Both the position numbers and the translations under genes were made by a program. From a virus (Duplodnaviria; Heunggongvirae; Uroviricota; Caudoviricetes): DNA of 12,985 bases. Every line of letters begins with the position of its first letter. The stretch's first letter is position 1. The DNA is taken from the IMG/VR virus record IMGVR_UViG_2537561857_000027; one strand, written 5' to 3'. Below, piece by piece: positions 1-12,985 of the stretch. The notes beneath the pieces were generated by a model that saw only the letters and a list, made by a program, of their open reading frames with translations, was not told the origin of the DNA and did not search any database.

Positions 1-393
1 TTATGCCGTCACTGAATCGCGCTCAACATACCGATCCATCTCCAGCCGAACATCCAGCATCATCAGCATTCCTTCAATAACACCTTCAGCTTTTTGCAGC
101 CGCTTTCCGATAGTCCCATCAGAGCATTCATGTTTTTGCGCCAGTGACATAAACGTCATCCCCCGCACGTAGTAATCAACCAGCAACTCATGCAGATCGC
201 GATTGTTCCGGTAAAGGCGGGCTATGCACCCGCATATCACCATCGCATCATCGTCACAGCACTGTGGGCGTGATGTTATCTTTGCCGGAATAATCCCCTT
301 AAATCCTGCGGCAACGGATGACCAGGTCACATTCTCGCGATTATTTGCCGCCCACGCTCCCCTGCGTTCCAGAACCTGCTGAATATCACGCAT
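1..393 (-). CDS. Phage antitermination protein Q-like (QuuD-like), about 130 aa
   Basis: ORF-track frame 1..399 with stop at 1-3. The track's first codon is TTG; the first ATG is at 393-391, preceded by GAGG 9 nt upstream. The product [18 protein letters not shown]...CCDDDAM...[18 protein letters not shown]...[15 protein letters not shown] matches, from memory, the DLP12 QuuD / Q antiterminator family. Identification is by recall, not search. Confidence 0.6.
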
Positions 394-461
394 CAACAAT
401 CGCCTCGTAATAGCTGTGGTTACATACCCGTAATTCGGAGATGCACTGGATGAAAGTTAAA

Positions 462-600
462 CTACGAAAATTTCGTAGTTCTGACCCTCTTAAAGATGGT
501 TTGTTATCAGCCCTCAGAAGTGAGGGATGTAAAAATCAGGGCTGGCTGGCTGGCCCGGTCTGGATGGTTTACATACCCCGATATCGGGGATGTACAAATC
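462..600. other. Cluster of three GC-rich hairpins upstream of the Q-like gene: CTACGAAAATTTCGTAG (462-478), CCCTCAgaagTGAGGG (511-526), CCCCGATATCGGGG (576-589); the last two are each followed by ATGTA(A/C)AAATC
   Basis: Inverted repeats read directly from the sequence. The third is embedded in a longer imperfect palindrome ACATACCCCGATATCGGGGATGTA. None is followed by a T-run on the plus strand. Function unknown. Confidence 0.4.
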
Positions 601-779
601 ATGGTTTTACGACTGGTGAATTTGAACAACTCAAATAATCGAGTAAATGAGCAATAAACATCAATGGGTTAGAGTAATACCACGCAGCAGTGTTTCTCAA
701 CGCCCACCACTGACGGAAGTTGAATAAACTGAGCAGGCCAAAGCTCAAAAATGAGCTTTGGAACAATATCAACAAGTTA

Positions 780-975
780 CCGCCGTAACCGCTCCGGTTT
801 CCCCCAATGGGGGATTTCGAAAGAATCAACGGCTTAGGCCTTAATCATCTGCGTAATCATAATGATTATTCAGCCAGCGCAATTTTGCGCTTTGCTTTAA
901 TCTCAATGAGTTACCACGCCGACTTCCTCAAATTGAGGATTGTGGAAGAATCAACGGGTTAAGCCTAAATCAAAG
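780..975. repeat. Two degenerate tandem units about 125 bp apart, each a short GC hairpin (CCCCCAATGGGGG 800-812; CCTCAAATTGAGG 925-937) followed by the box GAAGAATCAACGGNTTARGCCTNAATCA (818-846; 945-972)
   Basis: Direct comparison of the two units. Both boxes contain a perfect match to the IHF core consensus WATCAANNNNTTR (AATCAACGGCTTA 823-835; AATCAACGGGTTA 949-961). No convincing ORF on either strand. Confidence 0.45.
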
Positions 976-1146
976 TTTTCGTGTGTATGTATTCGAAGGC
1001 TGATTTTCATGAAAATACCTTTAGAAGGGGTTTTGAAATTCCTCATTTGTGGCTCTGGCTTATGCCACTGATACGGAGCCGCGTTCTGTCGCTGCTCCTG
1101 CCGTCTCCTGACCACCATATGTTCCACCGTGTACAGCGTGCTCAGT

Positions 1147-1170
1147 AAAAACCACAGATTCGTGGTTTTT
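1147..1170. terminator. Candidate bidirectional intrinsic terminator (AAAA-ACCAC-agattc-GTGGT-TTTTT)
   Basis: 5-bp stem with 6-nt loop, flanked by an A-run upstream and a T-run downstream, so it is a hairpin plus U-tract on either strand. It lies about 70 bp downstream of the stop of the minus-strand 57-aa gene. The stem is short, so this is weak. Confidence 0.35.
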
Positions 1171-1239
1171 CTCCGGCTCTTTTTGCGACTCGTTTAAAAC
1201 TGGTCACAAGGTTACTTAAAGTTACTCAGTTCGACACCA

Positions 1240-1413
1240 TCACGGCACACCAGCCACAACACGCGCATAATTTTCAGTGGTCACGCTGTCCGGCTGCGTG
1301 GACTCCTGTTTGCGCTGGCGTTCTCTCTGCTCTTCAATCATGAGGATTAACTCGCGCTCCTCCTGTTCTTCAATAATCCCGTGAATTACCTCTGTTGGTG
1401 AACGGTCGGTCAT
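1240..1413 (-). CDS. Hypothetical small acidic protein, 57 aa (MTDRSPTEVIHGIIEEQEERELILMIEEQRERQRKQESTQPDSVTTENYARVVAGVP)
   Basis: Hand translation; below the 60-aa cut-off of the ORF track. ATG at 1413-1411 is preceded by a G-rich SD-like stretch (GGGGG, about 4 nt spacer); stop at 1240-1242. Its first 30 bp are duplicated at 4390-4419. Flanked on both sides by GGTTACTT(A/T)AAGT(T/A)ACT sites (1210-1227 and 1465-1483). Confidence 0.4.
   Translation of the reverse strand: MTDRSPTEVIHGIIEEQEERELILMIEEQRERQRKQESTQPDSVTTENYARVVAGVP
1382..1411. repeat. 30-bp perfect direct repeat, copy 1 (TGAATTACCTCTGTTGGTGAACGGTCGGTC); partner at 4390-4419
   Basis: Exact 30/30 identity read from the sequence; flanking bases differ on both sides. 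Copy 1 covers codons 2-10 of the 57-aa gene. Confidence 0.9.
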
Positions 1414-2045: not shown

Positions 2046-2069
2046 AACCGGGTTTATCCCGGCTTTTTT
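2046..2069 (+). terminator. Candidate plus-strand intrinsic terminator (CCGGG-ttta-CCCGG, then c + TTTTTT)
   Basis: 5-bp GC stem followed by a T6 run on the plus strand only. Its T-run overlaps the stop codon of the convergent minus-strand restriction gene. It implies plus-strand transcription in 1414-2040. Confidence 0.4.
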
Positions 2070-3144
2070 AATGTTTGATGCATTTTTCCATGAAAGAATC
2101 TAAGAATTGATCGGTTATTCCTTGAGGCTTTCGGCGCTCACAAAGAGAATACAATTCTTCTACGGCAGAGTAAGGAAAAAATTTTGTGTCTAGCTCACGA
2201 AATTGTGGTCTATTTGCAAACTCAATTACTTTTTCTCTATATTCATCTGGAGCTACGATTGTCCATCGTATATCTTGCAGACGGGGAGCATAATCACAGA
2301 AGTTCTTCATACGTGCTAAACCCCTTATTATTCCGGTACTATGCTCGATCTCCATCACGGCAGGCATCAATTTACCATTTCTAAACCAGATGCAATCTAT
2401 CAATCTTGCGCCAGCAATGGCTTCGCTGTAGGAACTTAGGACTTTTTCATTAGACAGACTGTCAATGACACCATCCATTTGAGCGATTGCTTTACCATTG
2501 TATTTTAATCCTCGGTCATTAGCTGCAACCCATGTTCTGTATCCCAGATGATGACCGATTTTTACTAATGCTATCTGGATTTGTGCATGTCTTCTTGATT
2601 CTTCAATAGACATGCCTTCAATTGGACGGATTGTTTCTGAATCAACACTTTGGTATACAACTTCTGTGTTCATCTCTGATATTACAATATTAGTTTTGTA
2701 TTCAGAAAGCTTGCCGTTTTCATGTGGTAAATTCGGTAAGTATATAAGATGCTTGTGGCCTTTTTTAATCGTCTGTTTCGTATTAATAACCTCTAAGCGG
2801 TCGAGTTTACACCAATAAAATTGAGGTGTATGAGCAAGCAAACTTTCAATAACTGAACGAGAGTTATAGCTTGCACCGAATACTCTATCTAAATTGATAG
2901 GCGCATCCTCTTGAATTGCGTTAGCCAAACGCCATAGCATTTGGCTAGATATGCTATCAACTTTGGCATCTCTGAGCGTTTCACCTTTGGTTGGATTGAA
3001 ACGTTTAAAGCGTATTGGGCCTTCTGGTAACTTAATCGAGTCGATAACAATCTTCCCGGCATTACTTTCATTCACATAATCAAACTGCCTGTTTTTGGGT
3101 AGATTTGCTATCGCATTCACAAGATTCATTGCTGTTAAATTCAT
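2068..3144 (-). CDS. Putative Type II restriction endonuclease partner of the adjacent methyltransferase (358 aa); nuclease family not recognisable
   Basis: Long ORF directly downstream of, and overlapping by 65 nt, the C5-methyltransferase gene on the same strand. ATG at 3144 has GGGA 6 nt upstream. The C-terminal region has a possible PD-(D/E)xK-like arrangement (...ARLIDCIWF...PAVMEIEHS...), which is a weak call. The restriction function is inferred from operon context. Confidence 0.5.
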   Translation of the reverse strand: MNLTAMNLVNAIANLPKNRQFDYVNESNAGKIVIDSIKLPEGPIRFKRFNPTKGETLRDAKVDSISSQMLWRLANAIQEDAPINLDRVFGASYNSRSVIESLLAHTPQFYWCKLDRLEVINTKQTIKKGHKHLIYLPNLPHENGKLSEYKTNIVISEMNTEVVYQSVDSETIRPIEGMSIEESRRHAQIQIALVKIGHHLGYRTWVAANDRGLKYNGKAIAQMDGVIDSLSNEKVLSSYSEAIAGARLIDCIWFRNGKLMPAVMEIEHSTGIIRGLARMKNFCDYAPRLQDIRWTIVAPDEYREKVIEFANRPQFRELDTKFFPYSAVEELYSLCERRKPQGITDQFLDSFMEKCIKH

Positions 3145-4219
3145 CTTTTATCCCTAAATGCTCTAATATGGATTTTGCTATGCCTAAAGCCGCAAGGTAA
3201 GGAACACCATTGCCAACAGTTTTAAACATATTTGAAAGAGTCATGTAAGATGGCAATTCGAATTCTTTCGGTAAAGACTGAATGGCAAGTGCTTCTGCAA
3301 CTGTTATTCTACGTGGCTTATATGGATGCAAATGTACTTCATTATTACCGTAAGCAGCTGTTGGAGAATATCTCCAGCGATGAAGACGCTTGTAAGATTT
3401 TTTGCTATCGTCCCCTTCAGCTACAGCTTTAAAGCGAACTAACCCAGCCCTAGCAGTAAACACATGTTTTGCGTTCACATGTTCAGAAACTTTGTTTTTC
3501 CTAAACCAGTAGTCAACAGTTAACTCTTCAGGAAGTGACTCAGGCATTGCCAGTGTTGAGTTCTCAACAAATTCATTCGTAGTTGGCCAATTATGTTCAA
3601 AAGCACTACTATCTGGGTATAATCTTCCACTCCAGTTAAAGATCTTGGTTAGACTTTTATTTTGGAAACCCAACAGAATAATGCGTTCACGGTCTTGCGG
3701 GACTCCGTATTCAATCGAATTTATTAACCTTTCATGAAGGATGTAACCAACGTCCATTAACTGTTTTTTGAGATGCTCAAAAAACTCACGGTGTTTGAGC
3801 GTGCGATAAAGACCTTTGACGTTCTCGAACAAAAAGAAGTCAGGCTTCATCTCAACAATTATATTGATGTAACTTTGAGACAGCTTACCGTTCTCTCCAT
3901 CGCGACCTTTGTTCTTACCTGCAACGGAGAAATCAGGGCACGGTGGGCCACCGATGAAGCCAATTAGTCTTTTTTCTTTCTTGAGAGCTTTAATATTATC
4001 TTTCAACTTATTGTGATCAACTTCCTCGATGCTCTCTTCTGCATATCCAAAACGTGGGATAGGTTTGTTCATCACCGCTCGTGAGTGCTTGTAAGCATCC
4101 ATAAATGGTGGGTGAAATTCATTCACAAAAACCACCTCGTAGCCTGAGTTTTCGAAGCCAAGATCTAGAAAACCTGAGCCGGAAAAGAAAGAGAAGATGG
4201 CGGGTTTAAGTGTGGACAT
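3080..4219 (-). CDS. DNA (cytosine-5)-methyltransferase, Type II R-M modification subunit (379 aa)
   Basis: Canonical m5C-MTase motifs in the correct order: I FSGSGF (FxGxG), IV GGPPCPDFS (catalytic Pro-Cys), VI ENVKGL, VIII QDRERIILLGF, IX RRITVAEALAIQSLP, X GNGVPY. A variable region of about 130 aa lies between VIII and IX. Start ATG at 4219. Confidence 0.9.
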   Translation of the reverse strand: MSTLKPAIFSFFSGSGFLDLGFENSGYEVVFVNEFHPPFMDAYKHSRAVMNKPIPRFGYAEESIEEVDHNKLKDNIKALKKEKRLIGFIGGPPCPDFSVAGKNKGRDGENGKLSQSYINIIVEMKPDFFLFENVKGLYRTLKHREFFEHLKKQLMDVGYILHERLINSIEYGVPQDRERIILLGFQNKSLTKIFNWSGRLYPDSSAFEHNWPTTNEFVENSTLAMPESLPEELTVDYWFRKNKVSEHVNAKHVFTARAGLVRFKAVAEGDDSKKSYKRLHRWRYSPTAAYGNNEVHLHPYKPRRITVAEALAIQSLPKEFELPSYMTLSNMFKTVGNGVPYLAALGIAKSILEHLGIKDEFNSNESCECDSKSTQKQAV

Positions 4220-4443: not shown

Positions 4444-4893
4444 TCAGAACGGAATATCGTCAGAGAACGGGTCATCACCTCCCGCTGGTGGCTGATTTCC
4501 CTGCTGTCCGGTCTGTCGTTTTGCTCTTTCCAGTGCTTCAGTCGCCTTCCCCTGTTGCCCCCGCTTCCCGCCAGGGCGCACCGAACGGGCACTGATTACG
4601 CTGTCAGCGATAACCTGCCAGCCCTGCCGTGTTTCCCCGTTCTGTCCGGTCCACTGGCTGATCTGCATGTTACCCGCCACGCTGATAAGGTCGCCTTTTT
4701 CATGTCTCGCCAGCGCGTCGGCCTGCTTACCAAATGCCAGGACTGATAGCCATAACGTCGCCTGTCCGTCCTGTGCCTGACTGCATGGCAGTGATACCGC
4801 CATACGCGCCAGCGTCATCGGTGTGCCCTTGCTGGTCTGTTTTACCTGCGGGTCGTCCACCAGCCGCCCGTAAGCTGCAATCTGTGCTGTCAT
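4444..4893 (-). CDS. ssb: Single-stranded DNA-binding protein (SSB), 149 aa
   Basis: Gly/Gln/Pro-rich linker and the hallmark acidic C-terminal tail ...GGDDPFSDDIPF (E. coli SSB ends DDDIPF). AAGGAG lies 8 nt upstream of the ATG. Start overlaps the stop of the upstream gene (ATGA). Confidence 0.85.
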   Translation of the reverse strand: MTAQIAAYGRLVDDPQVKQTSKGTPMTLARMAVSLPCSQAQDGQATLWLSVLAFGKQADALARHEKGDLISVAGNMQISQWTGQNGETRQGWQVIADSVISARSVRPGGKRGQQGKATEALERAKRQTGQQGNQPPAGGDDPFSDDIPF

Positions 4894-5306
4894 GGTCTGC
4901 GCTCCTTGTTCCGGTACTCCTGGATAATCCCCATTGTCATATCGAATAAATCACATGCCGCTTTTTCTGCATCTTCCGCTTTCAGGTCATACAGCGTCAT
5001 GAAATGGTGAGCGATTGCCCGTGCGGATCTTTTGCTGTTTGCTGAATATTTCTCATAGATTTTTTCTGCCCGCTCTTCAATATCCCGCCGGAACTCTTCA
5101 CGTTCAAACAGGTCACGGTGTATCAACATCAGCGAATCATTCAGCCATGTCACATCGGCGTATACCGTTCGCTTCCAGACAATCAGGATCGGGATATGTT
5201 TTTCATCGCAGTGATGCAGATGTTCGTCAGGTATATAAAGCGTGGCTCTGCCTCGTACCGATACGAACCTCACAACAGATTCCGTTTCACTTGTTTTTTT
5301 GATCAT
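4890..5306 (-). CDS. Hypothetical protein, 138 aa, translationally coupled to ssb
   Basis: The track ORF 4890..5435 runs back into the origin iterons, giving an RRLRQLRQLRRLRR artefact. The internal ATG at 5306 has a strong SD (AAGGAG, 7-nt spacer), so the start is placed there. Confidence 0.6.
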   Translation of the reverse strand: MIKKTSETESVVRFVSVRGRATLYIPDEHLHHCDEKHIPILIVWKRTVYADVTWLNDSLMLIHRDLFEREEFRRDIEERAEKIYEKYSANSKRSARAIAHHFMTLYDLKAEDAEKAACDLFDMTMGIIQEYRNKERRP

Positions 5307-5367
5307 GAATCGTCTCCTTCCAGGCATCACATCATTCACACGCTTTATATATATAGGAAAAACGTGT

Positions 5368-5683
5368 CGCCTCAGTCGCCTCAGTTGCCTCAGTTGCCTC
5401 AAACGTCTTAACGTATTGATTTGATTAATAATCACAAAAAAATTGAGGCGACATCATGTCGATTTGAGGCAACAATAGGGGGTATTTGAGGCAACATCAC
5501 GTTGGTTCCGTTCAGACAAACAAAACCTGTCAGCCGTGTTGCCTCAAAATGGGCAGTTGTTGCCTCAAAATGGGTAATTGTTGCCTCAAAATGAGCAATT
5601 GTTGCCTCAGTAAAAACAGAAATAAAACATATAAATCAATCACATATATATATTTATTACTGTTTGAGGCAACTGAGGCAACA
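5368..5683. repeat. Iteron-type replication origin: at least 13 copies of the 9-mer GTTGCCTCA / TGAGGCAAC in both orientations, plus an AT-rich stretch (5611-5662)
   Basis: Four tandem 9-mers at 5368-5403; three inverted copies at 5444-5496; four copies at exact 21-bp spacing (5539, 5560, 5581, 5602); two inverted copies at 5666-5683. The array lies immediately downstream of the replication protein gene. Confidence 0.8.
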
Positions 5684-5707
5684 TTTTTTCATCTTATATA
5701 CGCGTAG

Positions 5708-7846
5708 TTAATCGCTTCCCTCCTCATCGTGATTAGCGAACAACATCCCGTAGGCCCATAATTGCGCTCCATTAAGGTTCTTAAGGCGTGGGGTCTTGAT
5801 TTTCCATCCTCTCCCGCTCTCTGGTCGTTTCAGCATTCCAGCTTCGTGGAGTATTTTTGCAACGGTATCCTTGTTGAAGCCTTCCGCTACTTTCGATTTA
5901 AACGGCTCCGATAATACGTAAAACAACAATGGTTCATCGTAACGGCTTCCCGAATCCCTGTAGCCGTACAGCTCAGAAATCGGCAGGCTGGCTGGGTCAT
6001 AATCAACGGGCGCAAAACGGCTCATGCCGTAGGCAGCAAGAAACGCCTCTGCCTGCTCAATGATCTGTTTGTGTTCCTTGTTGCCCGTGCCAAATTCTTT
6101 TACCCAGGCATTAAATACATACTGAATTGCATCGCGGCATTCCTGCACGGACCAGCCAGTTACATGACCGGAAAGCACAAGCGCGGCCTCCAGTATGGAG
6201 AAACGTTCACCCACGCGGTGGACCTGCTCACCGTAATTGTCTGGAATGATATTTCGCCAGCGTGCACGGCTCTCTCTAACCGCGTCCTTAGCTTCCTGCT
6301 GGTTCTCCGCAAGCCATTTAATCCACTCACGCCCCGCTGCGCCGTGGTTTTCTTGCCATGCCGCCTTCAATGCGTCAGCGTGATCCTTTCCGTTGCTGTA
6401 TTCGTGTAACTGCGTGGCTTTTTGAATCGGGATATTGAGCAGGCGCACAAGTTGCCCGACCTTAACTTTTATCCCCGACGTTTTGAGGTATGTTTCGATA
6501 TCCACCTCTCCGGTGCTGATAGCAACGGTCCGCCAGTTTTTCAGCTCTCTGTTGCCGCCGTCCTTTGCCCCCTGTAATTTTCCGAATCCATTGAACAAAG
6601 TGTATGAGGATACGTACACGTCACGGGGGCTTCCTGCCTGCCCTATCTCGTCCAGTGGAAGGAGTCCGTGATTGTGTGCTTCTGCTTCGTTAGCTATCCC
6701 CAGCGCCGTTCCGTACCAGGTTAATCGCAGCGCCTCAGGATCGCCCCACAAGCTCGACGCGATGCTCTGCGTTGTGGTCTTGCCTGCTGTGGATTGCTCG
6801 AAAAAATGCACGCCAAAACCATCAGCGCCTGTCAGCCCGACTAATGGCGCGGATAATGACGTCGCTATACCCAGCATCATGAACGGATTGCCACCAGCCA
6901 GCCGCGCCACGCTGTCGCGCCAGCTTTCCGCCGTTCCTGCCACGGAATAACCGTTAATCGCGGCACTTTTTCCGGTAAACAAAACGGGCTTGTCAGATTC
7001 GCCGATAACCGTACCGTCCGGCATGATGTACGCGCCAAAATGCCAGCCAGCCTTCGGGCTTAAGTGCCATTCCTCATGCTGTCCGCCTAACTGCATCCAG
7101 TCAGCCAGGGGGATCCTGTGTTTTCCGTTTGTCGTGACTTTAAGCCCGTTGGCTTTCAGTAATCGCCAGCCGTCAGTGTCGCCTATTCCGCAGCAAGGCA
7201 CAGCCATAGTGACAAGCCGATTTGTTGTCGAATCTGTCCAGCGCATCACGCGGTAATGCTCGTTACCAATGACACCTGAACCGAGTAATTCAACGGAAGA
7301 ACACAGCCATTCGAACGGACGGATAATTTCGCCAGATTGCTTATCAACCTTTGGCGTCACCCAGTAAACGCCATCAGGACGGCATTCAACGCGGGGTTTT
7401 AATTCGTCATCATAATTTCCGGTGAAATTTGTCTTTGCCGGAAGATTGATCACCAGGCAGTTGCCGCGTTCCGCATCATCCTTCAGTCCAGCCATGCGCG
7501 GTGTCCAGTCCTCCGGCTGCTGGTCAACAAAGCCGCTGTAGCAGCGTGCCTCCTTTACACCCGCCACCGCAAGCAGTGTTGCTATCTGTAAAAGTGCTGT
7601 CTCTGATATTTCACCAGCACGATAAACGCGCACGTAATTGCGCCCTTTATCGATGATTTTCGTGTCTTCCAGGCTCGCCAGTTGTTTCGGTCCAAGAATA
7701 ACGGGCGGTGTATCATCTGCTGCAATATGCTTTCCGGCCCATTCGCTCCACTCTTTCGCATGTGCCCAGGCATCACTACCCGCAAAGATAATGACTTCGG
7801 TCATTTTGTCTTTCGGCTGTTTTTTTAAATTCGGTGCGCTTTTCAT
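5708..7846 (-). CDS. Satellite replication initiator, primase/helicase-like (pri-rep), 712 aa
   Basis: Large ORF adjacent to the iteron array. N-terminal region (MTEVIIFAGSDAWAHAKEW...) resembles Toprim/primase-type domains; the central region has a P-loop-like GKT segment (EQSTAGKTTTQS). The domain call is from pattern memory only. Start ATG overlaps the stop of the upstream gene (ATGA). Confidence 0.75.
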   Translation of the reverse strand: MKSAPNLKKQPKDKMTEVIIFAGSDAWAHAKEWSEWAGKHIAADDTPPVILGPKQLASLEDTKIIDKGRNYVRVYRAGEISETALLQIATLLAVAGVKEARCYSGFVDQQPEDWTPRMAGLKDDAERGNCLVINLPAKTNFTGNYDDELKPRVECRPDGVYWVTPKVDKQSGEIIRPFEWLCSSVELLGSGVIGNEHYRVMRWTDSTTNRLVTMAVPCCGIGDTDGWRLLKANGLKVTTNGKHRIPLADWMQLGGQHEEWHLSPKAGWHFGAYIMPDGTVIGESDKPVLFTGKSAAINGYSVAGTAESWRDSVARLAGGNPFMMLGIATSLSAPLVGLTGADGFGVHFFEQSTAGKTTTQSIASSLWGDPEALRLTWYGTALGIANEAEAHNHGLLPLDEIGQAGSPRDVYVSSYTLFNGFGKLQGAKDGGNRELKNWRTVAISTGEVDIETYLKTSGIKVKVGQLVRLLNIPIQKATQLHEYSNGKDHADALKAAWQENHGAAGREWIKWLAENQQEAKDAVRESRARWRNIIPDNYGEQVHRVGERFSILEAALVLSGHVTGWSVQECRDAIQYVFNAWVKEFGTGNKEHKQIIEQAEAFLAAYGMSRFAPVDYDPASLPISELYGYRDSGSRYDEPLLFYVLSEPFKSKVAEGFNKDTVAKILHEAGMLKRPESGRGWKIKTPRLKNLNGAQLWAYGMLFANHDEEGSD

Positions 7847-8142
7847 TTCTTGCCCCTGAATGCGTTAATCATGTTTTTCATCTTTCGGATGTTCGCCTCT
7901 GCTTTTGCGTTGCTGGCTGGCTTACCGCGCGGCACGGACTGCACCAGAGAAAAATCACGCGCGAACTGATACAGTGGCATTACGCAGTCATAGTCATAGC
8001 CTTCACGGCGGTAGGCGATACGGCGTTCTCTCACGCTGATAATTGTCACGATGCCGCCGTACTTATCGCGGTAAATATCCCCGCGCATAAATTCAGGTTG
8101 AGCTTTGCCACTGGCAGTTAAGCCAGAATTTTTTGATGTCAT
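7843..8142 (-). CDS. Hypothetical protein, 99 aa, translationally coupled to pri-rep
   Basis: ATG at 8142 with GGAGA 8 nt upstream; stop overlaps the pri-rep start. Confidence 0.6.
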   Translation of the reverse strand: MTSKNSGLTASGKAQPEFMRGDIYRDKYGGIVTIISVRERRIAYRREGYDYDCVMPLYQFARDFSLVQSVPRGKPASNAKAEANIRKMKNMINAFRGKK

Positions 8143-8390: not shown

Positions 8391-8575
8391 TACTGCACCC
8401 CCTTAATTTCATGAACGGCGTGGATAATTACGCCGGATAAACCGGCTTTAGCTGATTTGTTAATTACTGTGCTGATTGCAGCCTGGACGTTTTCGGCCTT
8501 CACGTTCTGCGTGATGCCAACGGTATAGCCGCGTGCATTAACGGCACGGGAAAAAACACGGAAGGTTTTAAGCAT
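8390..8575 (-). CDS. Hypothetical protein, 61 aa
   Basis: Strong SD: GGAGG with 6-nt spacer before the ATG at 8575. Confidence 0.55.
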   Translation of the reverse strand: MLKTFRVFSRAVNARGYTVGITQNVKAENVQAAISTVINKSAKAGLSGVIIHAVHEIKGVQ

Positions 8576-8738
8576 GAGTCACCTCCTGACGGATACGGGC
8601 GACAAAAATCAGATGTGCGTGCGGCAGCTGCGCGCGTGCTTCGCGCTCAGTGGCAGCGGTAACGGTGAATATTGCAATGCTACCTGTCAGGCACTGCATA
8701 AAGCGCCAGACAAAGTAAGGGCGTGCGGATACAGCCAT
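8568..8738 (-). CDS. Hypothetical small protein, 56 aa, with a hydrophobic core (LTGSIAIFTVTAAT); proposed real 3' part of the 504-aa track ORF
   Basis: Internal ATG at 8738 is preceded by GAGGAG with an 8-nt spacer, and codon usage improves from here to the stop. Its end overlaps the start of the next gene by 8 nt. Start assignment is by inference. Confidence 0.35.
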   Translation of the reverse strand: MAVSARPYFVWRFMQCLTGSIAIFTVTAATEREARAQLPHAHLIFVARIRQEVTHA

Positions 8739-8903
8739 GTGAAAGGCTCCTCTGACTTTGGGATTATACCCACCGCCGGAGGTGGTAAGCTCGCTGGCGG
8801 TGGACTGTACAGGGTTACCACAACTGGCGTTAGAGGAAACCAGCCCGACCGAAGTCGGCCCCATACAGCCCACCATTGTTGAGGTGTGCGTGTGCGCCGA
8901 TAC

Positions 8904-8924
8904 AAAAAAAGACGCTGGCGCGTC
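8904..8924 (-). terminator. Minus-strand intrinsic terminator (GACGC-tggc-GCGTC followed by T7 on the minus transcript)
   Basis: Plus-strand A7 at 8904-8910 precedes the hairpin at 8911-8924; an outer CGATACA/TGTATCG stem (8897-8903 with 8926-8932) encloses it. Confidence 0.5.
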
Positions 8925-9207
8925 GTGTATCGCCTCTAACTCCAGCGGGGTGGTAATCCCGATCCCCGTTTTATAAGGGATAGCCTCAGTATATGCCGCT
9001 TTTTTGCTTAAGTGGTCGGATGTGTTGCGAGAGAAGTTTGTGCGAAAAATACCTGCGTTTTCTTTGAAAGCACATAATAACATCACGTTATTTATGTTTA
9101 TGCAGTGTGTCGCAAAGCGACCTGAATCATCACGCAAATTACAACCATAAAAAATACCTGCGCTGTGATATGAGGTACTACAGCGCACCGCTTTACGGGT
9201 ACAGACA

Positions 9208-9387
9208 ATGACAAATGAAGAACTACAGGAAATCGCATTATCCATACTTGAGCGACAGCGCGAAAAAGTACGCCTGGAACGCGAGTCTTTGCTTAATCCC
9301 TCTCCTCTCACCAGACCAAAACGATTTGCGCTTGAGGCATTTCTGGACAAATACCCACGGCGATTAATCTCGCCTAAAAACCGATAG
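9208..9387 (+). CDS. Small basic/helical protein A, 59 aa (MTNEELQEIALSILERQREKVRLERESLLNPSPLTRPKRFALEAFLDKYPRRLISPKNR)
   Basis: Hand translation; below the track cut-off. Shares a C-terminal motif K(R/K)FALE(A/E)FL(D/R)KYPRRL...KNR with ORF B, and a similar 45-nt upstream region. Composition is protein-like. The coding strand is not proven (see findings). Confidence 0.4.
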   Translation: MTNEELQEIALSILERQREKVRLERESLLNPSPLTRPKRFALEAFLDKYPRRLISPKNR

Positions 9388-9483
9388 CGATCCGCTTTTG
9401 CTTCTCTGACTCCATAAAACGAATAACAACCATCAGCGCCGTGGTGTGAGGTGCTGCGTCGCTCCGCTGTACAGGAAATAAGT

Positions 9484-9762
9484 ATGGATTTACCACCAGA
9501 AGATGAGAAATTTTTACGACAACTACAACACCAACTACTCATGGATGCCATTGTCGAGCAGCAAACAGGGAGCAGCCCCATTGATTCATCGCTGAATAAA
9601 AAGGCCGCTTCCCGTTTTATTGAAAACAGGATAAGACGAGGAAAAACATGTGACGACGAGTCAAAGGCATCGCATACAAGAGATAAAAAATTTGCACTTG
9701 AAGAGTTTCTCAGGAAATACCCACGGCGGCTAAAAGCAACCAAAAATCGCCCGCCAGGCTGA
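9484..9762 (+). CDS. Small protein B, 92 aa, paralogue of protein A
   Basis: The track ORF 9451..9762 begins at GTG; the ATG at 9484 has AGGAA 6 nt upstream. C-terminal motif shared with protein A. Confidence 0.45.
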   Translation: MDLPPEDEKFLRQLQHQLLMDAIVEQQTGSSPIDSSLNKKAASRFIENRIRRGKTCDDESKASHTRDKKFALEEFLRKYPRRLKATKNRPPG

Positions 9763-9765
9763 TAG

Positions 9766-10076
9766 CATTGTCCACCAGCCTCAGATATGGCATTGTGGAT
9801 AATGCGCTTGATTTCCTTTATCTCCACTGGCGACCCTTTCGTGGTCGCCTTTGTTTTGCCTGCCATTCCTGCATCATGCGGATATTCGCGCCGTACAGGG
9901 CCACCAGCGCGATAATTTGATAAAGCCTCCTTCTGATAATGCTTAACGTGTTTCATGCGCTCAGCGGCGAAATGGCTCACGATATGGCGCATGTAATCAG
10001 CATGGTTGATGCTCACCTGTGCGAACTTATCCGCAGTATCGATGTACAGGGCGGCAGCGTTGCGGATGTCAGGCAT
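9766..10076 (-). CDS. Hypothetical protein (MPDIRNAAALYIDTADKFAQVSINHADYMRHIVSHFAAERMKHVKHYQKEAL...); start well supported, 3' end unresolved
   Basis: ATG at 10076 with GGAG about 9 nt upstream; it overlaps the stop of the upstream 51-aa gene by 8 nt (ATGCCTGA). The first 50 or so codons use E. coli-preferred codons (ATC, CTG, CGC, AAC, TTC). The frame has no stop until 8568. The lower coordinate given here is arbitrary. Confidence 0.3.
9829..9858 (+). terminator. Plus-strand intrinsic terminator (GGCGACC-ctttcgt-GGTCGCC followed by TTTGTTTTG)
   Basis: Perfect 7-bp GC-rich stem followed by a T-rich tract, about 70 bp downstream of ORF B. Confidence 0.6.
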
Positions 10077-10224
10077 GTTCACGTTCTCCCAGGCGACGGA
10101 CCAGCCAGCGTTGGGCTAATTCGGTGAGACGTTCTTTACGTTCTGGCGTTGGCATATCCATATCCAGTAGCGCACAGTTACGGCTTTCCAGATACGCGAG
10201 CAACGCCAGTTGATCAGCGGTCAT
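10069..10224 (-). CDS. Hypothetical small protein, 51 aa (MTADQLALLAYLESRNCALLDMDMPTPERKERLTELAQRWLVRRLGEREHA)
   Basis: Internal ATG at 10224 overlaps the stop of the Rha-family gene (ATGA); the track's longer 81-aa version would overlap that gene. Confidence 0.45.
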   Translation of the reverse strand: MTADQLALLAYLESRNCALLDMDMPTPERKERLTELAQRWLVRRLGEREHA

Positions 10225-10859
10225 ATGGTCACGAACTTTTTTTGATGGGATGCCGTTTTTTTGGCCCATACAGGCGGGTGCATCCCTAATACAAGGCGCG
10301 CAATGAAAGTACATTCGTTGTTATAAGCATGACCGTGTTGAGTATCTCCAGTGCGCTCAATGTATCCCTTCATGGCATCCCCCATAGAGCGCATCTCAGC
10401 TTTGGCCTCACATCTCTCTGCTATCCAGTTAGCCATGCGGTTAAACTGCGCAATGTATGCCTCTTTGAATGCAGCCGCTTTTTTTCCGGTAAATCCCATT
10501 GTTAAAAACACGAAGCCGTCTTTGGTGACTTCGTAGGCTTTCAATACGCGCCCCTTATGCTCAAATTTTACCCGCCGAAAATTGCGGGTTAAAAATTCAG
10601 CAGAACAACACAGGTTTTCAATCCGGTTAACAACCTTATCGTGATCCTTTCTGAAAAATCGGGCGATAGCCTGTGAAGTGGTTACAGGCTCACCGCCAGA
10701 AGGAAACACTTCCGGCGCGGTGAGTGCATTTTTATTTATTCCGTCAGCAATAATCTCATTGCCGGAAATTACCGGAATAATTGCGGCGAAATACTGTTGG
10801 CTCAGTTCTTCGGGCTGAACGAAGCCCTGCCCCTGTACGAGCATATTCGGACGTTTCAT
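10221..10859 (-). CDS. Phage regulatory protein, Rha family (212 aa)
   Basis: Residues about 57-140 (TTSQAIARFFRKDHDKVVNRIENL...RVLKAYEVTKDGFVFLTMGFTGKKAAAFKEAYIAQFNRM) match the Rha-domain signature as I remember it. AGGAG lies 7 nt upstream of the ATG at 10859. Confidence 0.75.
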   Translation of the reverse strand: MKRPNMLVQGQGFVQPEELSQQYFAAIIPVISGNEIIADGINKNALTAPEVFPSGGEPVTTSQAIARFFRKDHDKVVNRIENLCCSAEFLTRNFRRVKFEHKGRVLKAYEVTKDGFVFLTMGFTGKKAAAFKEAYIAQFNRMANWIAERCEAKAEMRSMGDAMKGYIERTGDTQHGHAYNNECTFIARLVLGMHPPVWAKKTASHQKKFVTI

Positions 10860-10924: not shown

Positions 10925-11128
10925 TTACGCGGCGTTGTTGCGAGAAGCATCAATACGCTGGTTAATCCATTCGTCGACTTCACTTTCAATAAAAGCCACG
11001 GAGCGGGGACCAATTTTTACCGGTTTAGGGAAACGCCCCAGGCTGATCAGGCGATAAATCCATGCGCGACCATAACCAGTACGGCGCATAACTTCAGAAA
11101 GACGGATGAATGAATTGTTATTAGCCAT
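10925..11128 (-). CDS. alpA: AlpA-family transcriptional regulator / excisionase-like protein (67 aa)
   Basis: MANNNSFIRLSEVMRRTGYGRAWIYRLISLGRFPKPVKIGPRSVAFIESEVDEWI matches the AlpA/Vis-type helix-turn-helix signature. AAGGAG upstream. Position just downstream of the integrase is typical for P4/PICI satellites. Confidence 0.85.
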   Translation of the reverse strand: MANNNSFIRLSEVMRRTGYGRAWIYRLISLGRFPKPVKIGPRSVAFIESEVDEWINQRIDASRNNAA

Positions 11129-11206: not shown

Positions 11207-11239
11207 ACGACAAAAACCACAACATGAAAACATGTTGTG
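11207..11239 (-). terminator. Minus-strand intrinsic terminator (CCACAACATG-aaaa-CATGTTGTGG, then TTTTTGTCG on the minus transcript)
   Basis: Perfect 10-bp inverted repeat at 11216-11239 with the A-run on its plus-strand 5' side; about 530 nt downstream of the int stop and about 90 bp upstream of the alpA start. Confidence 0.6.
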
Positions 11240-11770
11240 GTATTGCATAAGATAAATTCAGATTGTTTGGTTGGTATGCTCCAGCAAGGTAGAGCTATTC
11301 CCGCTTTCGGCGGGGTCACACGATTAGGCGTGACGTCCAGTAGTTTTAAAGAGCGTTTTTTCAGTACATGGTGGGCGGACAAGAAAGCAATTGCGCTTTG
11401 TCAGCGCCGTAGATTCATATTTGAATCGTTGTATGTTTCCCGATAGCAAATCTATCGGTCACTGCGGGACGAACCATCCCGCCGCATCAATGTTAAAGAT
11501 CAACAGCACTTTGCCAGCGCTCCACCGCCTCATGGATGAATCATTACATGCTTTGTAATAGTGCATATATCACCATTCTTTCCTGCATCAGGAAAGCACT
11601 AAAGGCTGTTAAAGAGCATCCAGCTTTTCAGCTGCGTAGAAGACTCAATCTTCGTTGTTACAAAGAGCGCCCATACATGACGGATAACTGCGTGAAAAAC
11701 CCTCTGTAAGGATGTTAGCTGTAGCTTTCCGTGTACGTTAGTATACATCTGTATACTTGTCCAGTCGTTT

Positions 11771-12985
11771 TTATGCACATACACCAAACTTGCCGTGCAC
11801 CACGTTACCGCCCTGTTCCAGTGAGTCCATATAGTCGGCGTACCACTGGAGCATCTCCCGCCGTCCGTCCAGATATTGCGCGTGATTGTATGTGCCACGG
11901 ATCGAGTTTTTATCGACGTGCGCCAGCTGCGTTTCTATCCATGCGGAGTTATACCCCTGCTCGTGCAAAATCGTACTCATGGTGTGCCGGAACCCATGAC
12001 CAGTAACACGCCCTGCATAACCAATACGACGAATAAGCACGTTCATCGCCATTTCACTCATCGGTTTACTGTGCTGTATTCGACCAGGGAAAATAAACGG
12101 ATACTGCCCCGTCATGTGTTTCAGTTGTTCCAGAATAGCAATCGCCTGTTCTGAAAGCGGCACGCAATGAGGACGGCGCATTTTCATTCGTTCTTTCGGC
12201 ACTTCCCACAGACGATTATCAAAATCAATCTCCTGCCACTCTGCCTGCCGTAATTCACCAGGGCGGAGTCCTGTAAGAATCAACAATCGCATACCCAGCT
12301 TGACGATCTGGCTTCCGGTGTACGTATTAAAAACGCGGAAAAACTCCGGTAGCTCATCAACTTTCAGATACGCGTAATGCTCTTTCTTGTGTGGTGCAAA
12401 TGCGCTTGCCAGATCAGGAGCGGGGTTATATTCAGCGCGTCCGGTAATTATTGCGTACCGGAACACTTCGCCACATCGCTGGCGAACCTTACGCAATTTT
12501 TCAGTTGCGCCACGGTCATTAAGACGGGATAGAACCGCGAGCAATTCCATCGGCTTAATCTCTGCGATGGGCCTACCTCCAATGTACGGAAAAACGTCTT
12601 TTTCAAACGTCTCTATCATTTCCTCTGCATATGAGGGAGACCATCGGTCCAGGCGTTTTTCATACCACTCACGGGCGATCGCCTCAAAGGTGTTACCGCA
12701 TTTGTTCGCCTGTTCTCGCTTTTGGGCCTTTCTGACCTCACTCGGATTAACTCCACCAGCGATAAGCCTTTTGGCCTCATCCCTTGCCGTCCTGGCATCA
12801 GAAAGGGACACCTCAGGATAAACACCCAGCGACAACATTTTGGGCTTGCCTGCAAACCTGTATCGCAATCGCCAGCCCTTCGAACCGTTCGGCTCAATGA
12901 GTAACGAAAGCCCGTTGCCGTCATTGAGTGTATAGGCTTTCTCTTTTGGCTTCGCGCGGCGGATAGCAAGGTCTGAAAGCAACAT
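11771..12985 (-). CDS. int: P4-type tyrosine integrase (404 aa), complete
   Basis: N-terminus MLLSDLAIRRAKPKEKAYTLNDGNGLSLLIEPNGSKGWRLRYRFAGKPKMLSLGVYPEVSLSDAR is the conserved P4-integrase N-terminal domain; C-terminus has the catalytic region (HGFRHT ... RGTYNHAQY). ATG is at 12985-12983, the window edge, so the attachment site lies beyond the window. Confidence 0.95.
   Translation of the reverse strand: MLLSDLAIRRAKPKEKAYTLNDGNGLSLLIEPNGSKGWRLRYRFAGKPKMLSLGVYPEVSLSDARTARDEAKRLIAGGVNPSEVRKAQKREQANKCGNTFEAIAREWYEKRLDRWSPSYAEEMIETFEKDVFPYIGGRPIAEIKPMELLAVLSRLNDRGATEKLRKVRQRCGEVFRYAIITGRAEYNPAPDLASAFAPHKKEHYAYLKVDELPEFFRVFNTYTGSQIVKLGMRLLILTGLRPGELRQAEWQEIDFDNRLWEVPKERMKMRRPHCVPLSEQAIAILEQLKHMTGQYPFIFPGRIQHSKPMSEMAMNVLIRRIGYAGRVTGHGFRHTMSTILHEQGYNSAWIETQLAHVDKNSIRGTYNHAQYLDGRREMLQWYADYMDSLEQGGNVVHGKFGVCA

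Follow-up and report, generated by a model that had tools for sequence, protein, structure and literature searches.

The stretch of DNA analysed here (referred to as the window; 12,985 nucleotides of the IMG/VR virus record IMGVR_UViG_2537561857_000027) begins with a gene which a sequence-only reading had taken for a Q-type, QuuD-like late-gene antiterminator lying next to a phage satellite. Such a gene raises the question whether it belongs to the satellite or to a neighbouring prophage and, if it belongs to the satellite, what an antiterminator of late phage genes could do there.

The open reading frame is intact. It runs on the minus strand from an ATG at position 393 to a TAA stop codon at 3-1 and encodes 130 amino acids; a GAGG motif is located 9 nt 5' of the ATG, and an alternative in-frame start, a TTG at 399, would yield 132 amino acids. 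The product matched the Pfam profile PF06530 (Phage_antitermQ) from end to end (profile positions 1-118 of 118, E=1.5e-49, 167 bits with a cut-off of 26) and PHROG 79, 'anti-termination protein Q-like' (E=1e-47). With phmmer it matched Q21 in its solved structures, 6JNX and 6P18 (E=2.5e-7). In a search of 5.8 billion proteins it was 81% identical to QuuD of DLP12 (P0058) and 86% identical to P0020, a 126-aa Q protein of canonical lambdoid prophages, whose gene neighbourhood is NinB-NinE-YbcO-RusA-NinH-Q-...-holin-lysozyme-Rz. The AlphaFold2 model (mean pLDDT 66.6, residues 47-112 confident, helices at 81-87 and 92-112) looks like a sigma-region-4-like DNA-binding domain of the Q21 type: the top Foldseek matches were ECF sigma region 4 (rmsd 1.6-1.9 Å over 68 amino acids) and Q21 chains, with E-values of only about 1e-2, and the model agrees with the sigma-region-4-like helix-turn-helix (HTH) fold known from Q21 (bioRxiv 10.1101/651190). 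Taking into account the Pfam and PHROG matches, the identity to QuuD, the Q21 matches and the fold, these comparisons confirm that the supposed likeness to QuuD was correct and that the product of 1-393 is a genuine member of the lambda-type Q family. The orientation had also been read correctly, all other island genes being on the minus strand, and the distance to the cargo, put at 1.2 kb, was roughly right: the nearest gene, orf57, is at 1240-1413 and the restriction-modification cargo starts at 2068.

All 36 invariant columns of the family (36/36) are retained in the window protein. Q21 and 35 of 36 relatives share a tryptophan at position 11, where the window protein has arginine (codon CGG at 361-363). 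This W11R substitution is common to the whole lineage with this exact Q protein (700 blocks of the collection listed). Because it affects a nearly invariant tryptophan, the Q allele of the window lineage may be weakened, hypomorphic or inactive.

To which element the gene belongs was decided by the ends of the island. The E. coli chromosomes that match the window at 99.9-100% identity carry the island beside the tRNA-Gly gene glyU, between actS/xdhA and the ygeQ/ETT2 region. Since the window runs exactly from the Q stop codon (left edge) to the integrase start codon (right edge), both att sites are outside it; no copy of the tRNA-Gly att core was found within the window with up to 3 mismatches allowed, nor any tRNA gene. 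The attL site, the 3' end of glyU (TGGAGCGGGCGAAGGGAA), is 166 bp past the right end. The distal att site is a degenerate copy (TGGAGCGG-CGAAGGGAA) about 770 bp past the left end, beyond Q; the DNA between Q and this attR is non-coding. The sequence to the left of the distal copy was joined to the tRNA, and the resulting synthetic empty-site junction was looked for in 5,426 complete E. coli genomes, of which 3,387 contain it in one piece with 99.9% identity. The intact occurrence of this junction indicates that the whole stretch, Q included, is one insertion. A related satellite (L002) occupies the clpS/cspD intergenic site, has a different integrase and is bounded by an 11-bp direct repeat (ATAACTATCAT); its reconstructed empty site was present with 100% identity in 5,057 of the 5,426 genomes. 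Q is located inside the att repeats at both sites, by approximately 0.77 kb at glyU and by 1.75 kb at clpS/cspD. The left flank past the island consists of ygeQ (glycoside hydrolase family 15, GH15) and type III secretion genes of ETT2, and no phage lysis or structural genes were found there.

Q is therefore inside a PICI-like satellite of about 15 kb with no prophage next door. The description of the gene as adjacent to the satellite has to be corrected accordingly, and a boundary between 400 and 1240 with Q in a neighbouring prophage, or an attR to the right of Q with an ordinary prophage to the left, is refuted by an att copy beyond Q and ETT2 genes on that side. The direct repeats of the island, which the sequence-only reading had named as the thing to locate, flank it with Q between them. 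A tandem-element boundary between Q and the cargo was also considered and rejected, because a third att copy (≤3 mismatches) is absent from this interval. As to the other suggestion, a satellite carrying its own Q-like activator, membership is established and is joined by evidence of selection (see below), whereas the activator action is our inference.

The features of the island are listed in Table 1. The integrase, AlpA, the primase with ori iterons and the flanking att repeats are those of PICI-type elements; AlpA is the master activator in related PICIs (PMC6092414, PMC11773190). Structural or lysis genes were not found in the island, nor did it yield a cos/pac site or a gene for packaging. 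A general family scan of the proteins, not a search by name, gave no match to P4 sid, psu or delta, and no unassigned ORF of suitable size for any of them remains. The C4 antisense RNA was the sole Rfam match, and no Rfam family was found near Q. This RNA is enclosed by a 504-aa ORF (8568-10082, 'Icd-like' in PGAP) of odd, Ser/Cys/Arg-rich composition, of which only the last ~70 codons are likely to be the real icd-like gene; in relatives the region is split into several short genes. The methyltransferase and endonuclease genes overlap by 65 nt.

Table 1. Features of the island (window coordinates; those marked L001 refer to the JNEC-KY203 copy)
Feature	Position	Strand	Remarks
Q antiterminator gene	1..393	-	130 aa; last gene of the satellite; tail DSVTA; W11R in window lineage
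Q aa 68-101	92..193	-	HTH of sigma-region-4-like domain; cassette swapped with phage Q
Spacer upstream of Q	394..1239		non-coding, 846 bp; lambdoid-phage scraps
Small palindromes CCCYC..GRGGGAT	511, 576, 801, 926		
Direct repeat, 63 nt	785-847 and 910-972		
roi fragment	919-1000		82 bp, 95% identity; inverted relative to Q
KilA-N/Rz-region fragment	about 1099-1187		
orf57	1240..1413	-	small conserved gene; present with Q in most relatives
Variable cargo slot	2068..4219	-	restriction-modification pair
NmeDI-like endonuclease	2068-3144	-	NmeDI_C domain
C5 cytosine methyltransferase	3080-4219	-	Dcm-type
Replication module	4444..8142	-	
SSB	4444-4893	-	
orf138	4890-5306	-	
ori iterons	5366-5401 and 5537-5609		adjoining primase gene
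DUF927 primase-helicase	5708-7846	-	
DUF4222	7843-8142	-	
Regulatory module	8568..10859	-	with Ash/Icd-like region
C4 antisense RNA	8793-8880	same as Icd-like ORF	Rfam, 77.7 bits
Rha-family regulator	10221-10859	-	
alpA	10925..11128	-	
alpA leader	11216..11634	-	boxB-/boxA-like (nut-like) elements
Intrinsic terminator	11241-11216	-	strong; 11-bp stem, then T-run; directly before alpA
Hairpin after consensus boxA	about 11313-11299	-	
Consensus boxA	11344-11333	-	CGCTCTTTAAAA
P22 / Stx-phage nutL boxB	11407-11393	-	exact; GCGCTGACAAAGCGC
boxB-like hairpins	11634-11621 and 11521-11505	-	
P4-type tyrosine integrase	11771..12985	-	
JNEC-KY203 lesion, IS421	L001 31089-32201		
JNEC-KY203 lesion, rha	L001 30078-30853		
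JNEC-KY203 lesion, int	L001 33130-34274		

The position of Q at the end of the satellite is not particular to this copy. The gene order in the family is int, alpA, rha, C4/icd (ash/icd), DUF4222, DUF927 primase, a small ORF, ssb, variable cargo, (orf57) and Q, and this architecture with Q last was found at glyU (for instance in L003, from STEC), at clpS/cspD, near ligB/gmk and near dppA (the last two in L015 and L016). The cargo between ssb and Q is a restriction-modification pair in the window and ProQ/PerC or an EcoRII system in relatives, and the slot behaves as a defence/accessory hotspot. Some satellite copies have a 124-aa ORF on the opposite strand beyond Q. Of the 5,426 complete genomes, 116 or more contain the satellite-type Q together with its own downstream sequence. 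An estimate, by DNA search, of the Q-bearing share of the primase-defined family was rejected, since the primase is too diverged (78-81%) to give comparable megablast counts. All satellite Q proteins are 130 amino acids long, and their C terminus is (D/E)SVTA or, in one variant, LVTA; every Q protein with a different tail that was looked up is encoded in a prophage beside lysis genes.

Comparison of Q genes between satellites and prophages revealed a sharp change of relatedness within the gene. Over nt 1-200 the window Q gene is 97-99% identical to that of satellite L003 and about 81% identical to prophage L019, but over nt 201-290 (aa 68-97, the HTH) it is 97.8% identical to the prophage and only 75.6% identical to L003. 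The HTH segment of L003 is in turn 97.8% identical to that of the VT1-Sakai (Stx1 phage) Q gene. Satellite Q proteins fall into four recognition-helix types (SDGT, SDGH, SDSL and SDTC), and the variable residues 93 and 94 are at the start of the recognition helix in the AlphaFold2 model. In O157:H7 the satellite Q, of the SDSL type, differs from that serotype's Stx1 phage Q, which is of the SDTC type. These alignments show satellite Q to be a mosaic, whose HTH cassette has been exchanged with different phage Q genes.

The site on which a phage Q acts did not accompany the cassette. The resemblance to phage Q genes breaks off precisely at the edge of PR'/qut, and when five satellites were searched for phage PR'/qut/tR' DNA, only 8-13-mers at chance level were obtained. 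A scan around Q for sigma70 consensus promoters returned 0 sites. There are neither nin genes before Q nor PR'-qut-tR' and lysis genes after it, and the approximately 100 bp downstream of the gene is ~91% conserved between satellites which have different cassettes. The satellite thus possesses a Q factor without a recognisable site for it. Since the cassette moved without qut and the 100 bp after Q stayed conserved, the simplest reading is that the target of Q is in a phage. From the similarity of the proteins we infer that satellite Q would match the qut of a helper.

In lambdoid phages PR' is constitutive, and Q alone suffices for late-gene expression from a repressed prophage. For this reason Q is proposed to be a trans-activator of the late operon, be it that of a helper or that of a prophage resident in the cell. 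Activation of a lambdoid helper would lead to transcription through the co-oriented satellite, possibly starting at the nut-like alpA leader (see below), and Q would be reached last. The HTH of Q would then bind the Q-binding element at the constitutive PR' of the helper or of a resident or cryptic prophage, and Q would load on the sigma70-paused RNA polymerase, allowing readthrough of tR' and turning on the lysis and virion genes in trans. The satellite would thereby gain capsids and release, as P4 does by means of delta with P2, and swaps of the DNA-recognition cassette with phage Q genes would keep Q matched to the circulating phages. We consider it an even chance that Q acts in this way on the late promoter of a lambdoid helper and secures capsids and release for the satellite. 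Several observations speak against the proposal. A matching helper is not always resident, because some host genomes, such as that of S1-KEN-03-A, have a single Q-like place and no second relative of Q detectable by megablast; the satellite and Stx1-phage Q types of O157:H7 disagree; the window allele has W11R; and no cos/pac site or packaging gene came to light through which the satellite would make use of the virions.

All evidence for action in trans is equally compatible with Q loading at the PR'-qut of the helper for the purpose of interference or defence. Q produced early by the satellite would then fire the holin, endolysin and late genes ahead of phage replication, causing premature lysis or expression of late genes from an unexcised prophage, cutting the yield of the helper and protecting the population. 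The island carries defence cargo in the form of the restriction-modification pair, and interference with helpers is common among PICIs (PMC6739421, PMC11364771). What speaks against this reading is that Q is the last gene in a 12-kb co-oriented array, which suggests that it is expressed late rather than early. Benefit and interference are not separable from the sequence, but we regard interference as unlikely to be the main role.

It is less probable still that Q serves the transcription of the satellite itself through an unrecognised qut, for example downstream of Q, and that in the circular form Q-modified transcription crosses attP into int-alpA and overrides the internal terminators of the satellite, creating positive feedback. 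The co-orientation of all genes, with int following Q in the circular form, the conservation of ~100 bp downstream of Q among satellites and the many terminator-like sites on the coding strand would fit such a circuit; searches near Q and in the rest of the satellite brought up neither a sigma70 promoter nor a PR'/qut of the phage type. Moreover, a cis site would be mismatched, because the HTH cassette was swapped without a phage qut while the downstream 100 bp stayed ~91% conserved.

The surroundings of Q bear on a further explanation, namely that the gene is inert baggage, a piece of a lambdoid nin region gained by recombination and in this lineage already inactivated by W11R at the nearly invariant tryptophan. 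Q is indeed found amid phage scraps: fragments of roi and of the KilA-N/Rz region in the upstream spacer and, a short way past the window, ori iterons of the lambda type. In addition, the JNEC-KY203 copy of the island (L001), otherwise a 100% match to the window, is decaying: IS421 has inserted between rha and alpA, and both rha and int are frameshifted. Yet Q is intact even in this copy, as it is in every copy examined, representing at least four integration sites and four cassette types. The dN/dS values among satellite Q copies are 0.10-0.22 at a substantial dS of 0.28-0.74, a range like that obtained between phages. Because dN/dS is low while the phage-derived DNA around Q decayed to fragments, Q must have been kept by selection, and the comparisons indicate that it is an integral gene of a PICI-like satellite under purifying selection. 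Inert baggage is accordingly quite improbable. As to a separate element, be it a lambdoid prophage (a neighbour or a remnant) or another island integrated in tandem at glyU, with the satellite boundary at 400-1240, the non-coding 846-bp gap with its phage fragments could be cited for it, but the absence of an att core copy from the window, the precise empty-site junctions which place Q inside one insertion at two sites with two integrases, the non-phage left flank (ygeQ and ETT2) and the linkage of Q to the same backbone at other loci make it hardly conceivable.

Two kinds of replication-related sequence were noticed on the distal side of Q. Four iterons of the lambda O-protein type are located at L001 19784-19870, approximately 130-215 bp past the left end of the window; they are 83% identical over 76 bp to the ori within gene O of 933W, H-19B and VT1-Sakai, are not followed by an AT-rich region, and are confined to the window lineage (L001, L005-L014), being absent from other Q-bearing satellites. 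They may be a decoy for O protein, a borrowed origin or a scrap. The palindromes flanking Q were considered as a family-wide lambda-type origin, but they are treated as phage scraps because the four-iteron block is lineage-specific and one 'iteron' lies within the roi fragment. In addition, a block of approximately 190 bp from the satellite ori (window 5327-5515), containing a 9-bp unit four times (5366-5401) and TTGAGGCRAC motifs, is duplicated past Q (L001 19544-19724) with 87-92% identity. Direct repeats thus enclose the segment orf138-ssb-RM-orf57-Q in the window lineage, and recombination between them would delete Q.

The opposite end of the co-oriented array suggests how the satellite might sense its helper. 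The leader between int and alpA is 640 nt long and displays, on the coding strand, three hairpins that resemble boxB, with a boxA-like run after each of them. The boxB at 11407-11393 is an exact 15-nt match to the nutL boxB annotated in the P22 record. The 48 nt around it are 96-98% identical to a site in approximately 366 E. coli genomes; in one genome that was opened, this site is between repressor/stk and N of a prophage resembling 933W/H-19B, which is the position of nutL. The leader of L003 additionally has an exact lambda nutR boxB, and that of EcCIMP1 contains a copy of the lambda nutL boxB with one mismatch together with a P22-type boxB. The nut-like leader is not universal among Q-bearing satellites, since that of L002 differs and is without such elements. 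In 2018 the phage factor responsible for alpA induction was described as unidentified (PMC6092414). The alpA reporter of EcCIMP1, which responds when the helper is induced, covers -449 to +50 (PMC11773190), a segment that would include the nut-like leader. The boxB copies in the leader and the span of the reporter make it a concrete hypothesis, suggested by these sequence elements, that the N protein of the helper induces alpA by readthrough of the leader.

If so, the co-oriented satellite would resemble the lambda PR operon, with nut first and Q last. That this PICI subfamily is wired into both lambdoid antitermination switches, with an N input at the alpA leader and a Q output at PR', is a tentative proposal which we consider possible but somewhat doubtful. 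Were it true, N would be the long-sought phage-encoded inducer of E. coli PICIs, and satellite Q would fire the PR' of the helper or of any matching resident or cryptic prophage, that of stx included in STEC, so that late-gene expression would no longer depend on a decision by the helper itself. We found no description of nut sites in alpA leaders in the searchable literature; the nut-like leader offers a directly testable answer to the question by what means a lambdoid helper induces a PICI in E. coli.

Capture from helpers is known among satellites for capsids, terminases and even late-gene activators (P4 delta). No description of a lambda-type Q in the role of a conserved helper-exploitation gene of a PICI or other satellite was found in the searchable literature, the coverage of which is incomplete. 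As a protein, satellite Q is an ordinary member of its family; out of the ordinary is its occurrence as the conserved last gene of a PICI subfamily, without qut and with a cassette exchanged with phages. Should Q act in trans, an island of 15 kb could set off lysis and the production of virions by lambdoid prophages that are repressed or cryptic and, in STEC, home to many such islands, the expression of Shiga toxin from these prophages. The swapped cassettes would in that case constitute a natural series for studying Q-binding specificity in the Q82/QuuD group.

Compared with the lambdoid Q proteins (QuuD of DLP12, Q of H-19B/VT1-Sakai, Q21), satellite Q is a full-length member of the same family, 75-86% identical to prophage Q. 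Phage Q genes are preceded by nin genes and followed by PR'-qut-tR' and the lysis cassette, whereas satellite Q has neither; its tail, (D/E)SVTA, is its own, and its HTH cassette is mosaic. A Q-like protein under RNA control is AntQ of the Gifsy-1 prophage, which is governed by an upstream RNA and terminator circuit, IsrK/AnrP (PMC4825925). IsrK is in the same Rfam clan as the C4 RNA of the island, but AntQ, unlike satellite Q, is borne by a prophage.

An experimentally studied relative is EcCIMP1 (L023), an E. coli PICI for which induction and packaging by phage Kapi1 were demonstrated (PMC11773190). In amino acid sequence the integrase of the window satellite is 66% identical to that of EcCIMP1, its AlpA 71% and its primase 58%, and DUF4222, Ash/Icd and the nut-like alpA leader are also shared with it and with L032. 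Helper-dependent excision, replication and packaging have been demonstrated only for EcCIMP1 (PMC11773190) and EcCICFT073 (PMC6092414). L032, L031 and L023 have the backbone int-alpA-icd-DUF4222-DUF927-ssb-PerC in common and differ from the window satellite in the distal slot, where none of them has Q. In EcCIMP1 this slot contains P22-like ejection proteins and a homologue of Xis, which can substitute for the xis of the helper (PMC11773190), and in L032, a capsid-forming PICI of O157:H7 strain 8368, it contains HK97 capsid, portal and terminase genes. L031 (ExPEC XM) has large phage proteins distally. In the window subfamily Q is the sole intact phage-derived gene of the slot. By this comparison the distal slot, in which Q sits, is a swappable module for helper exploitation.

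Satellites acting on the late switch of their helper have precedents. The SaPI proteins PtiA and PtiM modulate the late-gene activator LtrC of the helper by binding and inhibiting it; the window satellite instead carries a member of the late-gene activator class itself. P4 resembles the island in its backbone (P4-type integrase, C4/CI-like antisense RNA, primase-helicase with iterons), and the duplicated ori block recalls the ori/crr layout of P4. In the window satellite sid and psu were not seen, and the proposed helper is a lambdoid phage, not P2. The proposed logic is the same in both cases, a satellite devoid of structural genes providing a regulator that acts in trans on the late genes of the helper, but the means are unrelated: P4 delta is a zinc-finger promoter activator, whereas satellite Q is an antiterminator.
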